A DNA stretch of 24,000 nucleotides. Origin: Candidatus Cryptobacteroides onthequi (GTDB lineage Bacteria > Bacteroidota > Bacteroidia > Bacteroidales > UBA932). A model generated the notes under the pieces. It had not been told where the DNA came from and did no database searches. It saw nothing but the letters and a program-made list of their open reading frames with translations. Shown piece by piece: positions 14,590 through 24,000 of this stretch; within the stretch, counting starts at the first letter, position 1, and each line of letters begins with the position of its first letter. The DNA lies in NCBI GenBank assembly GCA_018066125.1, contig JAGHSA010000007.1, forward strand, positions 3,308 through 27,307. Reading direction: 5' to 3'. The translations under genes and the position numbers were made by a program.

Positions 14590-16923
14590 TTAGAGTCTCA
14601 CTGACACAGGGACACCTGCCTTTGCCTTGACTGTCTTGACTTTGCCTCCGCAGCGGACACGCACCTTCGATGCATTGTCTGCCGTGATGGCGGCACATGT
14701 CAGCTTTCCGTCCTTCCATGCGATGTCCACGGTGTAGCCGCCGCGCGCACGGAGTCCCTTGATCTCACCGCTCGTCCATGAAGACGGAAGTGCAGGGAGG
14801 AGCACAATCTCACCGGAATGTGACTGAAGCAGCATCTCCGCAATGCCGGCACTGCCACCGAAGTTGCCGTCGATCTGGAATGGCGGATGGTTGTCGAAGA
14901 GGTTAGGGAGAGTGGACTTGGAGAGAAGCGCCTGTACATTGGATCCTGCCTCCTCACCGTCCATAAGACGGGCGTAAAAGTTGATCATCCACGCACGGCT
15001 CCATCCTGTATAAGATCCCCTGCGGGTCTCAGGATCCTCGTTGAACTTGCGGCGGCGCTCGATGGTGCGCTTTGCAGCAGTAAAGAGATCTGAGTCAGAT
15101 GATGTGATGGTGGTACCGGGATAGAGTCCGAACAGGTGGGACACATGTCTGTGACCCGGCTCTTCCTCTTCATAGTCCTCGATCCATTCCTGGATGGTGC
15201 CGTTTGCGCCTATGCGCAGAGGAGGGAGCTTGGCGTATGCAGCCTTGACCTCCTTGCAGAAATCAGCATCTACACCGAGAATGCCGGCAGCCTTGACGAT
15301 GGCGTTGAAGAGCTCCATGGTGATTTCGACATCCATGGTAGAACTGTATGTGATCCTGTATTCCTCGCCGTCAGGATGGATGTAGTGGTTCTCCGGAGAG
15401 TTGGAAGGAGCAGTCACGAGATGACCGTTCTTATCCTCTACCATGAAAGAGAGAAGGAACTCTGCAGACTCCTTCATGCAAGGGTATGCCACGTTCCTGA
15501 GGTACTCCAGATCTCCTGTGAAGAGATAGTGCTCCCACTGCTGGAGAGTGAGCCACGAGCCGGCAATAGGGAAAGTACCCCAGTCCACGGCGTCGCTGAT
15601 GGATGTATGGCCGAAGAGATCGGACACGTGGTTGACTGTCCATCCCTTGGCTCCGAAGGTCTTGGATGCGGTGACGCGTCCAGGTACACGGATGGCGTCT
15701 ATCCAGTGCGAGTATGGGAGTGCGGTCTCGGAGAGATTGCAGATCTCTGCCGGCCAATAGTTCATCTGGATATTGATGTTGGTATGGTAGTCAGAGTTCC
15801 ATGGTGCTTCCATGTCCTTGCACCATATGCCCTGGAGGTTGGCAGGAAGTCGTCCAGGAGCCCTTGAACTGCACATGAGCAGGTACCTGCCGAACTGGAA
15901 ATAGGTAGCGATGAGTGACAGGTCAGATGCACCTTCCTGCACGGCCTTGAGTCTCACGTCTGTAGCAACGTCGCTGAGATCTGAGTCTCCGAGAGTGAAT
16001 GACACGCGGTCGAACATGGACGCGAACTCCTGGAGGTGTCTGCTCTTGACAGAATCAAAGTCTCCGGCTGCGGCTATCTGGGCATTGCAGAGTGCCGCAG
16101 GGTCGATGCTGCGGTCGAAGTTGAGCTTGTCTGCATTGTAGTCGGTATTCATCGCTATGTAGAAGGTGACTTCATCTGCACCTTCGACATAGAAGCAGTT
16201 GTTTACAGCAGTCATGCTGCCACCTTTGCAGAAGCCCTTTATGAGACCGGCGAACTTCATGTGCAGGCCCGGAGGGCAATTCTTTCCGTTCGGAAGATCG
16301 ACTATCTGTCCTGAGATGGCCAGCGCATCCTTTCCTGCAGGACATGCATACGCATCCTGCTCACGGGTGTAGGTCATCTTGAAGTTCAGCCTGCCCGGCT
16401 TGTCCGCAGACATCCTTATCACGAGGATATCATCTGGAGCAGATGAGAACACCTCACGGGTGATGGTGGCGCCCCTGCTGGTGAAGACAGTCTTTGAGAC
16501 GCCTGTGGCAAGATCAAGCTCCCTGCGGTAGCTTTCCACGCCTGCACCGCCGATATGGTCGATCTTGAGGTCTCCGAATGACTGGTACGAGCGCACTCCC
16601 ATGACTTTGCCCATGAGCTTCGCCCTCGCAAGATCCCTTGCCTTCATTATCTGATCATCAAGCAGGAGCTTCTGAATCTCCGGGATCCACTTGGCAGCAT
16701 CGGCGTCACTGTCTGTCGGGCAGCCTGCCCAGAGGCTCTCCTCGTTGAGCTGAATGTCTTCATTCCAGCTGCCGCCATATACCATCGCACCTATGCGGCC
16801 GTTGCCGACCGGAAGGGCTTCATTCCAATTCCGTGCCGGCTGTGCATACCACAGGACATTCTGTGCCTGTGAAGAGACAGAAAACAATGACACGAGTATC
16901 GTCGCAAGAATAAACCTTTTCAT
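14590..16923 (-). CDS. GH95-family glycoside hydrolase (alpha-L-fucosidase / alpha-L-galactosidase type), exported
   Basis: A signal peptide is followed by the GH95 N-terminal signature [28 protein letters not shown]...[11 protein letters not shown]. The length is 777 aa. Confidence 0.9.
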
Positions 16924-16947
16924 ATCTGATAATTTATGATCTGTATT

Positions 16948-20660: not shown

Positions 20661-23288
20661 TTACAATGTCTGGTAGAGCGCTACCACATGGCCGGCCGGA
20701 GCCCAGAGTGTATCTTCCCTGAGCGAGAACCTGATATTGATCTCACAGCCTTCTGCTCCCGGTCCGAGATCGAAGTCTGCGGTCTCACCAGGTGCCAGGC
20801 TCGCGTCGCCGAGATTGCCAGAAGCCACCACGCGGCCGGCGCGCAAGGCCTCCCACTCGACATCGAAGCGGTCCATATCCGTAAAGTCAAATCTGTTCTT
20901 CACGGTGAGAACAGAACTCTTGCCGGATCTCGTCACTAAGAAAGGACGGTAGCAGTCCCTGATGACGCCAAGCACAGGGAAAGGCTTGCGGTCAGGAGAC
21001 AGAAGTCCGTCACGGCCTGCGCCCACGGCTGTAGGCTGCTCTCCGAAATCTCCCGAAAGATAGATCTTTCCGGAATCATCGCCGAACTTGTACAAGCCCT
21101 GCCAGCACCAGTCCCAATAGAAGGCGCCGATCATTCTCTGAGACTCCCAGATATAATCCCAATGCTCCTGGATGCCAGGGGTGTACTCGCAGAGCACATA
21201 CGGCCTGTCGGAACCGTTCTCGTCCCTCGCCTTCATATTAGGCACTGAAGGATACATGTTGGAGTCCATGTCCGCCACGGTATCATCTCCCTCGTAGTGG
21301 ATAGGGCGGGACGGGTCGAGAGCCTTGATGGCATCTCTTTCAGCCTCGATATTGCAGCCTCCGGCACTCTCATTGCCGAGCGACCAGAATATCACGCACG
21401 GGTGGTTGCGGTCACGCTGAACCATACGCGTGCCCCTGTCGACGTAGGCATCCTTGAATGAAGGGATGTTGCTGATGCCGTTGTTGCCATGGCACTCGAT
21501 ATCAGCCTCATCCATGATGTACATGCCGTAATAGTCATATATCGCATAGGCGGATGACCTCTGAGGATAGTGAGAGGTGCGTATCGAGTTGATATTGTTC
21601 TGCTTCATCATGATGACGTCCTGGATGGTCACCTCATCAGGAATGGCCTTGCTGTATGCAGGATGAGTCTCATGACGGTTCACGCCCTTGAAGAATATCT
21701 GCCTGCCATTGACCAGGACATGCCTGTCCCTGATCTCCACCTTGCGGAATCCGAATCGGTTGGAGACGGCCTGCACCTCATTGCCATCGGCATCTCTGAG
21801 GCTGAGGACCACGCTGTACAGGCTTGGAGTCTCTGCTGACCACAGTGAAGGATGATCGACTGCTGCAGAGAAGTCGATCTCGGCATTCTTTCTCTTCCTG
21901 ACCCTGACAGTACCGGCCTCACTCGAGAACACGGTCTTGCCTTCCGGGTCTATTAGTTCAACGGAGAGTGTGTGCTTCCCGGACTTTCCACCGAGATTGC
22001 GCAGCCATGTCTTCACGCTGAATGTGGCGGAAGTGAAGTCGGCGTTGAAATCGGATGAGAGATGGAAATCCGCGATGCTTGTCTTTGGAGCAGCGTACAT
22101 CCACACATTCTTGTGGATACCTGCCACGCGGAACATATCCTGATCCTCGATGAAACTTCCGTCAGACCATCTGAGGACCTCGACAGAAATGCTGTTGACG
22201 CCGGGTCTGACAATCTTTGTCACGTCAAACTCGGAGTCATTGTTAGGACCCTGGCTGTATCCCACGTATCTGCCGTTCACCCACACGCTGAATGCACTGT
22301 ACACGCCGTCGAAATGCAGGAATACCTCCTTTCCGTCCCAGGACTGAGGGAGAGTGAACTCGCGGCGGTACGATCCTGTCGGATTAGGTTCCTGCTCGCT
22401 GGTATAGCCCGGGACAGGGACGATGCGGCTCGGCTTGCCGTTGAACGGATAGGTCACATTTGAGTAGATAGGCGTGCCGTATCCATACTGCTCCCAGCAT
22501 GAAGGCACAGGAATCTCTGCCCATCCGCTCACATCATAGCTTTCCTTGTAGAAGTCCACCGGACGGAGCGACGGCTCCTTCACCCAGTTGAATTTCCAGT
22601 TGCCGTTGAGACACATATAGTCGGAAGACTCAGGGGTCATCCATGGCTTCTCGAAATATGCGGCATCAGCCTTGAGAGAGGCGACATCCGGGTACGGCAC
22701 CATAGTGACATGGCCCGGAAGCTTGTTCCTGCCTATGATCTTCTCATTCTCCCAGTCATCTTCTCCGCGGATGACCTCTGCCGGAATCTTTCCGCGTACC
22801 GGAACGAGCTTCCATACCAGAGCTTCCTCCCCGTCCTTTCCCAGTCTCAGGAGAGTACCTTCCTTGTCCTCTGCCTCGAGAAGGATGGCATGACGGCTAG
22901 TCTTGTGGCATATCCTGATCTGGCCCGGGGCAAACTCATCGATGTCCCAGCGCTGGTTGTCACAGTTGTTGTGCACCCAGCTTGCAAGAGGCCATCCGTG
23001 CACTCCGGGGTCAAGGATATCGAATGCCTGACCTGTATAAGGGCTCCAGATCGAATAGCCTGTCTCGTCTCCGGCGATGCAGAATCTCTGGAACTTGTTC
23101 TTCCTGTCCATCTTCTGAAGGGTGAATGTGGACTCGTCCTGAGTAGAGCCTCCGTTATCCACGGCATAGCCCTCTGGAGTTACAAGCATATACATCCTGT
23201 CTCCCCTGAAACGGGTTCCCGCCGACGCGGCAAGACAAAGTGCCAGCAGTGCTGACAGTGTGATTATCTTCTTCATATAGGGTATCAT
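20661..23288 (-). CDS. GH2-family LacZ-like glycoside hydrolase with an extra N-terminal ~140-aa module, exported
   Basis: The product is collinear with E. coli LacZ blocks: [85 protein letters not shown] (acid/base) and VLCEY (nucleophile). A signal peptide is present ([20 protein letters not shown]). The start is either the ATG at 23288, which forms an ATGA overlap with the upstream stop, or the ATG at 23276. The LacZ domain 5 is absent. Confidence 0.85.
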
Positions 23289-24000
23289 TTCCAGTTGTTC
23301 TCAATGATGGCATCGACCAGCCTGCCGCCGGCCACATTCCATCCGCCGAATACATCCGTCCCGGCAAAGTCCATGACCATGATTCCGGTCTTTCCATGTC
23401 CGGAGCGTATCATATCGGCTGCGGCGGCATTCACATTCTCGGAATTCTCGCCATATCCCGAAGCCACATACGCAGAGCAGTGATTCACTGTCCAGATACG
23501 GCTTCCGGCACATCTTTCATATGTGGCGGAGATTTCCGCCAGCTTGTCTTCCTTTCCCTGCGGGTCATAATAGTCCTGAACTGTCATGGGTGTCCTCGCT
23601 CCCTGGGCATTCACGATCTCGCACCTGTCCGGCCAGCCTTCAAGATAGGCGCCCACAGGACCGTCTTCATACCTGGTCCTGGACAGGAAGAGTATATGTC
23701 CTCTCAGCTCTCCGAGGGTGATATCATCCCTGAAATCGGCAGCAAGCCCTCCGGACTTCACGAACTTCAGGCAATCCCCCATCAGGGAAGCGAAATTGTC
23801 GGACAGATCGGCATCATCCTCATGCCTGAAAATGACCACGGCGAATTCCGACGGGTTCTCTTCGAGGCACGATGCCAGCGTACCGATGACCGACTCGAAA
23901 GTGACATGGGTATCCGCGATCTGATGGAAGACGCCCAGATGGTCGCCTCTCGATGTCGGACGGACGTCGAACGATCTCACCCCCGCTTCCCACAGTCCCC
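23285..24000 (-). CDS. Bacterial PI-PLC-like phosphodiesterase (PLC X-domain TIM barrel). Partial: the N-terminus lies beyond the right edge.
   Basis: The frame is open to position 24000 (...[14 protein letters not shown]...), and the track's 'M' at 23980 is an internal GTG. The product is collinear with my recollection of Bacillus cereus PI-PLC: GxRxFDxR...lxxxH, NPSE-x-iv, LGxxRGxIxxL, VQDxY and a C-terminal xxxMDF block. Confidence 0.75.

Follow-up and report, generated by a model that had tools for sequence, protein, structure and literature searches.

A phosphoesterase-rich SusC/SusD locus of Candidatus Cryptobacteroides onthequi, a candidate system for dismantling glycosylated inositol-phospholipids

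Introduction

The closest described counterparts of the gene cluster analysed here are the SusCD-like 'PusCD' phospho(inositol)lipid systems of Flavobacterium johnsoniae, reported by Connolly et al. in a September 2026 preprint (10.64898/2026.09.03.749221). The cluster in question, a series of glycosidase and phosphoesterase genes, lies partly within a 24,000-nt stretch of DNA (hereafter the window, meaning the whole stretch analysed) from a metagenome-assembled genome (MAG) of Candidatus Cryptobacteroides onthequi (Bacteroidales) originating from horse faeces. One of the Flavobacterium loci, Pus1, combines PusCD with a PI-PLC (phosphatidylinositol-specific phospholipase C) as well as a calcineurin-like esterase that has structural homology to the Botrytis phospholipase C acting on glycosyl-inositol-phosphoceramides (GIPCs); the other, Pus2, combines PusCD with PhoA1 (PhoA plus a pf13653 domain resembling glycerophosphodiester phosphodiesterase, GDPD), and growth on phosphatidylinositol and glycerophosphoinositol requires Pus1 and Pus2 together (10.64898/2026.09.03.749221). 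PusD binds inositol 1-phosphate, the import of GIPC-derived inositol-phosphoglycans was offered by the authors as a speculation, and genes for carbohydrate-active enzymes (CAZymes) flank PusD less often than its SusD-like relatives (10.64898/2026.09.03.749221). In the plasma membrane of plants, GIPCs account for up to 40% of the outer leaflet (10.64898/2026.09.03.749221).

GIPC-PLC1 of Botrytis cinerea (BCIN07g04350), picked as a putative sphingomyelinase, frees inositol-phosphoglycans and ceramide from plant GIPC (PMC11496612), and its fold is calcineurin-like according to the PusCD preprint (10.64898/2026.09.03.749221). Phosphatases working alongside glycosidases are represented by BT3783 and BT2630, which were assayed in the yeast-mannan polysaccharide utilization loci (PULs) of Bacteroides thetaiotaomicron (PMC4978465). 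Our literature searches retrieved no described PUL for GIPC, glycosylphosphatidylinositol (GPI) or teichoic acid, no GPI degradation by Bacteroides and no gut microbial pathway for glycan-inositol-phosphate head groups. Together with glycosylinositolphospholipids (GIPLs), GPI glycolipids coat fungi and protists. Here we show that the cluster from Candidatus C. onthequi belongs to a SusC/SusD locus that represents a CAZyme-rich variant of the known PUL and Pus kinds, and we discuss whether it may serve the degradation of glycosylated inositol-phospholipids.

Structure of the locus

Five co-directional open reading frames (ORFs) fill positions 14590-24000 of the minus strand of the window (table 1), and their junctions, derived from the ORF coordinates, measure in transcription order a 4-nt overlap, 43, 1 and 24 nt. 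An earlier note, made from the letters of the window, had taken these genes for an exported operon, of non-canonical layout as far as the window shows. Its gene series and junctions were reproduced, its domain calls (PI-PLC, GH2, GH97::GDPD, EEP and GH95, where GH stands for glycoside hydrolase family and EEP for endonuclease/exonuclease/phosphatase) were borne out by Pfam and, for PI-PLC, by a profile match to the Bacillus cereus structure 1GYM, and a basic-hydrophobic signal sequence was indeed found at the start of all four complete proteins. The idea of a non-canonical five-gene operon, however, had to be given up. Overlapping contigs reveal a classical SusC/SusD PUL with ~14-16 genes over ~27-33 kb, of which these five make up the distal third; the SusC/SusD pair, correctly reported as missing from the window, is located ~9-14 kb past coordinate 24000, and extension of the contig, as the note had proposed, uncovered a candidate regulator as well. 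The upstream DNA was obtained via exact-protein and cluster look-ups, which led to overlapping contigs from independent assemblies encoding identical proteins. The DNA loci and contigs compared in our analysis are designated by L-numbers, of which L001, L002, L005, L007 and L088 represent the same species.

In the direction of transcription the order is (PBP+AraC-type regulator, GH3-PA14), SusC, SusD, a BACON-like protein, ROK kinase, GH92-PA14, GH92, NPP-PA14, GDPD-like::PhoA, metallophosphoesterase-PA14, PI-PLC, RicinB-GH2, GH97::GDPD, EEP and GH95, where PBP denotes a periplasmic-binding protein fold and NPP a nucleotide pyrophosphatase/phosphodiesterase. SusC (1042 aa) is followed after 15 nt by SusD (614 aa; SusD_RagB 86 bits), and both are co-directional with all the enzyme genes (L007/L088). 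Farther upstream the sequence of genes is a TonB-dependent receptor, a GH63/MGH1-like protein, the regulator, DUF2490 on the opposite strand and GH3-PA14. The regulator, a 391-aa protein joining a LacI/RbsR-like periplasmic-binding fold to an AraC helix-turn-helix, lies 3.6 kb upstream of SusC with DUF2490 and GH3-PA14 in between, and is a candidate for controlling the locus; no hybrid two-component system was found, nor any extracytoplasmic function (ECF) sigma/anti-sigma pair within 7 kb upstream of SusC.

The CAZymes thus co-localised are GH3, two GH92 enzymes, GH2, GH97 and GH95. They are accompanied by seven phosphoesterase domains distributed over six proteins and four folds, namely the PLC-like TIM barrel (three domains), the alkaline-phosphatase superfamily (two), the metallophosphoesterase fold (one) and the EEP fold (one). 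PI-PLC-X and GDPD are members of the same PLC-like TIM-barrel superfamily, and the three unrelated phosphodiesterase folds previously seen in the window genes are therefore not all unrelated. Junctions from NPP to GH95 range from -4 to 43 nt. A CHB_HEX_C+PA14 module is common to GH92 and NPP, and PA14 alone occurs on the metallophosphoesterase.

Table 1. Features of the window, with coordinates counted from its first nucleotide.
Feature	Coordinates	Strand	Remarks
PI-PLC gene, 3' two-thirds (residues ~70-306 of 306)	23285..24000	-	gene runs past the window end
LacZ-type GH2, 875 aa	20661..23288	-	Pfam GH2_N, GH2, GH2_C, LacZ_4
GH97::GDPD fusion, 925 aa	17840..20617	-	single ORF
GH97 part (fusion residues 1-650)	18668..20617	-	Pfam GH97_N, GH97, GH97_C
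GDPD part (fusion residues 651-925)	17840..18667	-	Pfam GDPD 121 bits
EEP-fold phosphatase, 296 aa	16948..17838	-	Pfam Exo_endo_phos 56 bits
GH95, 777 aa, last gene of the locus	14590..16923	-	Pfam catalytic domain E=5e-164 plus N- and C-terminal domains
Terminator-like hairpin	14453..14477	-	consensus scan; 10-bp stem, 7 G-C pairs, T-rich tail
Secreted GH116, convergent neighbour	12001..14580	+	Glyco_hydr_116N 207 bits, DUF608 123 bits
YjjI-family glycyl-radical enzyme and YjjW activase	6104..8535	+	675 and 372 bits, both over equivalog cut-offs
GFO/IDH/MocA oxidoreductase	4057..5088	-	9.5 kb from the PUL

The PI-PLC and its residues

The identity of the PI-PLC is central to any functional interpretation. 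The partial gene at the window end yields no significant Pfam match, and PI-PLC-X (PF00388, cut-off 23.1 bits) scores 12.5 bits with the window fragment and 13.9 bits with the full-length protein of 306 aa recovered from an overlapping contig (L001 4147-5067). We nevertheless regard the assignment as genuine, because a profile built from 24 members of the family finds Bacillus cereus PI-PLC (1GYM) in the Protein Data Bank (PDB) at E=1.3e-51. The same profile matches, nearly over the full length, 25 PI-PLC chains (1GYM and 24 others), and distant family members (P0026, P0027, P0030-P0034) carry precomputed PF00388 matches. The family is small, comprising 34 clusters among 5.8 billion.

In the B. 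cereus enzyme (1PTG/1GYM) we take H32, D33, D67, R69, H82 and D274 to be catalytic and K115, E117, R163, D198 and Y200 to bind inositol. The residues aligned to the former set (H47, D48, D80, R82, H94 and D279) are invariant in the family. The counterparts of the latter are R127, E129, R168, D211 and Y213. Among these, R168 is invariant, D211 and Y213 show conservation of 90% or more, and the close clade retains R127 and E129. Nearly all family members also have a lipobox cysteine near residue 17. These features point to a predicted lipoprotein that would bind a myo-inositol 1-phosphodiester. The secreted PI-PLCs of Bacillus, Staphylococcus and Listeria cleave phosphatidylinositol and release GPI-anchored proteins, with a chemistry that requires a free inositol 2-OH.

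The remaining enzymes

Directly upstream of the PI-PLC is a 479-aa metallophosphoesterase with a C-terminal PA14 domain, which scores 46 bits with Pfam Metallophos (cut-off 21.5) and displays the motifs DxH, GDN, GNHD and GHDH. It is preceded by a 648-aa fusion of a GDPD_2/PI-PLC-like domain with PhoA; the PhoA part matches 2W5V in PDB at E=6.5e-36 and has the nucleophile motif DSAAS, whereas the family of the N-terminal domain occurs mostly as stand-alone proteins of ~260 aa named 'PI-PLC/GDPD family protein' by NCBI. Elsewhere the same domain is joined to a second GDPD, rhodanese, a GH63/MGH1-like glycosidase or PF06439 (P0228/P0229, P0230/P0233, P0251, P0280). The GH63/MGH1-like type is also represented by the gene upstream of this PUL and is fused to GH43 in L003.

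Next in the upstream direction comes a 536-aa protein with CHB_HEX_C and PA14, best interpreted as an NPP-type phosphodiesterase (Pfam Phosphodiest 85.6 bits). A sulfatase identity was considered and rejected, the Sulfatase model reaching 39 bits; inspection by eye revealed the NPP-type motifs DATDHAGH and ADHGG and no C/S-x-P-x-R motif. One ENA assembly has the gene split into two ORFs (356 and 169 aa), with the same 169-aa ORF in the Logan contig L006, whereas further assemblies of this species have it uninterrupted (536 aa; regions compared: L005 4995-6605 / L007 13442-15052 with L002 4994-6604). The difference is due either to a frameshift at strain level or to faulty assembly.

The first of the two GH92 enzymes (GH92a; 981 aa; GH92, CHB_HEX_C and PA14) has its closest match in PDB in BT3130 (6F8Z) at E=4e-159 and is far from CcMan5, presumably a GH92 that uncaps mannose-1-phosphate. 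A protein search with the C-terminal half of GH92a gave a best match of 76% identity and did not return the exact protein, and the upstream DNA was reached through exact cluster look-ups. The second GH92 (1085 aa; L007 10001-13258) has ~370 C-terminal residues without a Pfam match and a truncated GH92 N-domain. Between the GH92 genes and SusD are the ROK kinase (271 aa; L007 6226-7041) and, following SusD, a 562-aa protein with a weak BACON match.

Among the window enzymes, GH2 is probably a beta-galactosidase: NCBIfam models of LacZ-type beta-galactosidases score 533-645 bits, under their cut-offs, and cover residues 176-874, corresponding to model positions up to ~723 of 1007-1090. The LacZ-like reading of the earlier note holds for GH2 domains 1-4, but the protein ends after LacZ domain 4 and lacks domain 5, as does the L008 orthologue (871 aa), and a ricin-B-like N-terminal domain had been overlooked (RicinB_lectin_2 E=7e-4 here; significant, as precomputed, in the L004 orthologue).

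The GH97::GDPD protein begins with a type I signal peptide on its GH97 part. Membership of the latter in GH97 is firm, and its specificity may be that of the retaining alpha-galactosidase clade (BtGH97b type), to which it seems closest: NF053844, the sole GH97 model of NCBIfam matched, aligns over the full length with 567 bits (cut-off 800). The GDPD part, far above the cut-off of 23.6 bits for PF03009, matches an uncharacterised GDPD structure (3CH0) at E=1e-48. Its orthologues in L004, L008, L009 and L092, 78-80% identical, are stand-alone genes of ~304-308 aa, and the ORF in L008 starts 26 codons before the match to the fused domain, leaving room for a signal peptide of its own. The fusion is not an assembly artefact, since it is present in an independent assembly (L005). 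The best 150 cluster representatives, out of 1.84 billion, include no second instance, so the fusion was dropped as a defining feature of the system; it is real but specific to Candidatus C. onthequi, the two parts being separate genes in relatives.

For the EEP fold the earlier note had listed sphingomyelinases, inositol-phosphosphingolipid phospholipase C and sugar phosphatases of Bacteroides yeast-mannan loci. The EEP protein is probably a sugar-phosphate monoesterase and no diesterase of the sphingomyelinase type, being a homologue of the mannose-6-phosphatase BT3783: in PDB it matches 3G6S over the full length (E=4e-55) and 4C1R over residues 34-211 (E=1.8e-45), the latter structure being BT3783, named mannosyl-6-phosphatase by its depositors. 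GH95, the last enzyme, belongs to a family of alpha-1,2-L-fucosidases and alpha-L-galactosidases and has syntenic orthologues in L008, L009 and L092.

Conservation in related lineages

The layouts of related loci were determined from tblastn searches and gene tables. In L008 (also from horse faeces; PI-PLC 69% identical) we found SusD, an unknown protein, GH92-PA14, NPP-PA14, GDPD-like::PhoA, PI-PLC, GH2, GDPD, GH95, GH92 and EEP. L003 (67%) has SusD, an unknown protein, GH92-PA14, NPP-PA14, GDPD-like::PhoA, PI-PLC, GH43/MGH1, GH89, GH78, EEP, GH43 and GH109, and L004 (61%) has RicinB-GH2, GH92-PA14, metallophosphoesterase-PA14, NPP-PA14, GDPD-like::PhoA, a metallophosphoesterase, PI-PLC, GDPD, an unknown protein and GH92. 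Shorter stretches are available for L092 (68%; GDPD-like::PhoA, PI-PLC, GDPD, GH95, EEP, GH109, GH97) and L009 (70%; metallophosphoesterase, PI-PLC, GDPD, GH95). Partial sets occur in L090 (54%; GH29, GDPD, PI-PLC, GH43, GH97, ROK) and L089 (53%; GH20, GH125, PI-PLC), and the distant L093 (31%) exhibits the order PI-PLC, ROK, SusC, SusD.

The region upstream of PI-PLC could be compared in five lineages with at least 61% PI-PLC identity and upstream DNA available, i.e. this species, L003, L004, L008 and L092. In every one of them GDPD-like::PhoA is either the neighbour of PI-PLC or separated from it by a single metallophosphoesterase gene. Four also have GH92-PA14 and NPP-PA14 with it, the L092 sequence beginning too near for a judgement, and each of the five contains GDPD, EEP and/or a metallophosphoesterase. 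The other glycosidases, by contrast, differ among the loci (GH2, GH97, GH95, GH89, GH78, GH43, GH109, GH125, GH29). The phosphoesterase core is thus constant in at least five related lineages and the capping glycosidases are variable, a pattern that would suit a conserved phospho-inositol/mannose core bearing lineage-specific glycan decorations. A short ROK kinase (271-274 aa) lies near the PI-PLC family in three divergent loci (this species, L090 10589-11404 and L093 1536-2360). DUF2490 is encoded on the opposite strand near loci of the PI-PLC clade in two lineages (L088 3261-4028 and L090 4108-4755, both minus strand).

A broader survey of PI-PLC neighbourhoods across Bacteroidales (579 genome matches, 80 loci fetched) sets limits to this conservation. 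At least 579 Bacteroidales species genomes, for the most part MAGs of Prevotellaceae and Bacteroidaceae from rumen and hindgut, encode homologues of 30-36% identity, many of which exceed 380 aa (L010-L087), but the phosphoesterase set was found only in loci with at least 53% PI-PLC identity. The more distant homologues are usually single genes, no neighbour family recurs in more than nine of the ~80 loci, and the neighbours sampled appear housekeeping-like by eye (e.g. DEAD-box helicase, asparaginyl-tRNA synthetase). The notion that PI-PLC is a general marker of such PULs was dropped on account of these unrelated contexts. In the gene-neighbourhood comparison that the earlier note had proposed, the phosphoesterase core was recurrent within the close lineages, and neither the neighbourhoods of the distant PI-PLC homologues nor the GH97-GDPD fusion were. 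So far, a small clade of Bacteroidales from the gut is the only group with the locus, and horse faeces are the only source stated; the genus has been reported from herbivore hindguts.

Proposed function

We propose, with belief and doubt in roughly equal measure, that the locus is a glycosidase-rich hybrid of PUL and Pus that delipidates, imports and dismantles glycosylated inositol-phospholipids of the GIPC, GPI or GIPL type. The candidate substrates would be GIPCs from plants or fungi, or glycolipids of the GPI/GIPL type from fungi and protists. Gene order, domain identities, the conservation of catalytic and inositol-binding residues and the synteny between lineages are established by the sequences; we infer the substrate, the locations of the enzymes and the order of steps, as follows. 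The first to act would be lipoprotein enzymes of the cell surface, some of them bearing sugar-binding modules of the PA14 or ricin type; there, PI-PLC would cut the inositol-phosphate-lipid bond if the inositol 2-OH is free and the metallophosphoesterase would do so if it is substituted. The soluble inositol-phosphoglycan freed by this cleavage would be imported by SusC/SusD, and periplasmic exo-glycosidases would trim its caps, GH95 removing fucose or L-galactose, GH97 and GH2 alpha- and beta-galactose, respectively, and GH92 alpha-mannose. Any diesters left would fall to the GDPD, GDPD-like and NPP domains and the monoester phosphates to PhoA and the BT3783-like EEP protein, and the ROK kinase would phosphorylate a released sugar in the cytoplasm.

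In favour of this proposal are the SusC/SusD structure of the locus, the inositol-binding residues of its PI-PLC, the conserved phosphoesterase core, the precedent of Pus, the liberation of inositol-phosphoglycans from plant GIPC by a GIPC-PLC of the metallophosphoesterase fold (PMC11496612) and the origin from a herbivore gut, to which the association of PI-PLC and ROK with SusC and SusD in the distant L093 may be added. Plant membranes, fungi and ciliates are plentiful in herbivore hindguts. The suggestion of the earlier note that the window genes degrade a glycan joined by phosphodiesters, and possibly linked to lipid, has held up, with GIPCs and GPI anchors as the best candidates now. The narrower claim that herbivore-gut Bacteroidales have a dedicated SusC/SusD system that delipidates and fully dismantles the head groups of plant GIPCs, which rank among the major sphingolipids of the plant plasma membrane, and/or of gut fungal or ciliate GPI/GIPL, with PI-PLC and the PA14-tagged metallophosphoesterase as the delipidating 'endo' enzymes, is more tentative and in our judgement leans to the doubtful side. 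If true, it would be the first gut-bacterial catabolic pathway for the glycan head groups of these lipids, and it would carry the concept of the PUL beyond polysaccharides to the head groups of glycolipids.

Several observations weigh against degradation of glycosylated inositol-phospholipids. The core of plant GIPC is GlcA(alpha1-2)inositol (GlcA, glucuronic acid), and the locus encodes no recognisable alpha-glucuronidase (GH67, GH115 or GH4) for it. Delipidation of such a core would depend on the metallophosphoesterase, because PI-PLC needs a free 2-OH. For the metallophosphoesterase, PDB searches with phmmer and with a five-sequence profile, at E up to 10, returned the PA14 domain and weak generic metallophosphoesterase matches and no acid sphingomyelinase (ASM) or SMPDL3 chain, and a single-sequence AlphaFold model was unusable (pLDDT 37.5). 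There is no ECF sigma/anti-sigma pair like that of Pus1/Pus2 in the 7 kb upstream of SusC. Furthermore, a single lipid-inositol diester does not obviously call for seven phosphoesterase domains; their number would favour substrates with several phosphates, such as GPI/GIPL cores, or a wider diet of phosphoglycans. GPI/GIPL cores may carry ethanolamine-phosphate or mannose-phosphate side groups.

A further point of this kind is that the closest characterised relative of the EEP protein acts on yeast phosphomannan. The locus could accordingly be imagined as a PUL for phosphodiester-bridged mannoprotein glycans of fungi or yeasts (Man-alpha-1-P-6-Man, possibly capped with galactose or fucose), in which, much as in the mannan loci of B. 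thetaiotaomicron, glycosidases uncap mannose-1-phosphate and the EEP phosphatase removes the remaining 6-phosphate. The two GH92 alpha-mannosidases in the conserved core, with GH92a matching BT3130, speak for this, as do the close homology of EEP to the mannose-6-phosphatase BT3783 (PMC4978465) and the GH125 gene of L089. Yet the backbone and side-chain enzymes GH76, GH99 and GH38 are missing from every locus seen, and the PI-PLC with its intact inositol-binding residues, the GDPD, the NPP and the GDPD-like::PhoA protein would be left unexplained, so we consider a phosphomannan substrate unlikely.

The classical substrates of GDPD enzymes are glycerophosphodiesters, teichoic acid among them, and this too weighs against an inositol-phospholipid substrate. 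Wall or lipoteichoic acids of Gram-positive bacteria, or other glycerol-phosphate polymers, might be the target if alpha-glycosidases (GH97 here, GH89 and GH109 in relatives) removed the sugar substituents, GDPD, NPP and the metallophosphoesterase depolymerised the poly(glycerol phosphate), and PhoA freed the phosphate. The physical fusion of an alpha-galactosidase-type GH97 to GDPD would make sense in such a scheme, to which the conservation of GDPD in six lineages, the GH89 and GH109 of relatives and the GH63/MGH1-like enzyme upstream also conform. That fusion is species-specific, however, PI-PLC and the GH92 alpha-mannosidases of the conserved core would have no role on teichoic acids, and no teichoic-acid PUL turned up in our literature search; this alternative strikes us as distinctly improbable. 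Even with phosphomannan or teichoic acid as its substrate, the locus would remain unusual among PULs in its wealth of phosphoesterases.

Finally, we see very little likelihood that a Pus-like phosphorus-scavenging set was merely co-located with, or recruited into, an ordinary neutral-glycan PUL with which it shares no substrate: although Pus loci are phosphate-regulated, PusD is flanked by CAZyme genes less often than its SusD-like relatives are, and the distant PI-PLC homologues are mostly found in unrelated housekeeping-like contexts, here phosphoesterase and glycosidase genes alternate at the tight junctions given above, share PA14-containing modules and are in one case fused in a single protein, and the interleaving is kept in lineages with 61-70% PI-PLC identity.

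Glycosylated inositol-phospholipids thus remain our preferred substrate, and the locus provides a testable set of ~16 genes that would link delipidation of the PI-PLC type, SusC/SusD import of inositol-phosphoglycans and stepwise removal of sugars and phosphates. Such import has so far been proposed only for the PusCD of Flavobacterium. The set offers candidate enzymes for reactions without a known bacterial catalyst, e.g. phosphodiester cleavage on mannose/inositol cores, and its natural fusions, of a glycosidase with a phosphodiesterase and of a phosphodiesterase with a phosphatase, give a hint of the sequence of steps. It also makes the fate of inositol-phosphate glycolipids in the gut directly testable.

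Neighbouring features of the window

The terminator-like hairpin follows the stop codon of GH95 at a distance of 113 nt, within the 3' end of the convergent GH116 gene; it is a pattern match only, the scan having found 5 sites against 3.1 expected in shuffled sequences. A scan for sigma-70 promoters is uninformative for Bacteroidota. The GH116 gene does not belong to the operon, and its stop codon is 9 nt from that of GH95. GH116 is the family of GBA2, a beta-glucosylceramidase, and glucosylceramide is the other major plant sphingolipid. The convergence of this gene on the end of the locus is suggestive given the glucosylceramide link; tblastn, however, found no GH116 match in any related locus. 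The oxidoreductase farther away has the myo-inositol 2-dehydrogenase IolG as its best NCBIfam match, at 172 bits under the cut-off of 355 and in a broad family, and may matter if inositol is a product. The listed ORFs of the YjjI-family enzyme and its YjjW activase overlap by ~100 nt, and the activase probably starts at a later codon.

Comparison with known systems

The secreted PI-PLCs of Bacillus, Staphylococcus and Listeria (1GYM, 3V16, 1AOD) share with the protein described here the fold and the catalytic and inositol-binding residues. Sequence identity to them is low (13.9 bits with Pfam PI-PLC-X, under the cut-off), and whereas they are secreted virulence factors, the protein of Candidatus C. 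onthequi is a predicted lipoprotein encoded in a nutrient-uptake operon. The likeness found to Botrytis GIPC-PLC1 is that of the Pfam Metallophos domain, to which the protein here adds a C-terminal PA14.

MAN-PUL1/2 of B. thetaiotaomicron (Cuskin et al. 2015, PMC4978465) resemble the locus in having SusC/D, GH92 enzymes together with an EEP sugar phosphatase (BT3783/BT2630), and a phosphodiester-containing glycan as the target. They differ in their GH76, GH99, GH38 and GH125 enzymes, none of which is encoded in the locus here, and in the lack of PI-PLC, GDPD, NPP, PhoA and metallophosphoesterase.

With the Pus systems of F. johnsoniae, compared by domain architecture only, the locus shares a SusC/SusD pair, PI-PLC, a calcineurin-like esterase and GDPD-like::PhoA. 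The earlier note knew of no described locus with its combination of enzymes; this is to be qualified, the PusCD systems having three of the phosphoesterase types of the locus, with PusD less often flanked by glycosidase genes than its SusD-like relatives. The three Pus enzyme types, spread over Pus1 and Pus2 in F. johnsoniae, are here adjacent genes of one locus, which unlike Pus further contains six or seven glycoside hydrolases, NPP, GDPD and EEP, several of these proteins bearing PA14 or ricin modules. The regulator is of the PBP+AraC type instead of the ECF sigma/anti-sigma pair of Pus1/Pus2, and the host is a gut anaerobe, whereas F. johnsoniae is an aerobe of the rhizosphere.

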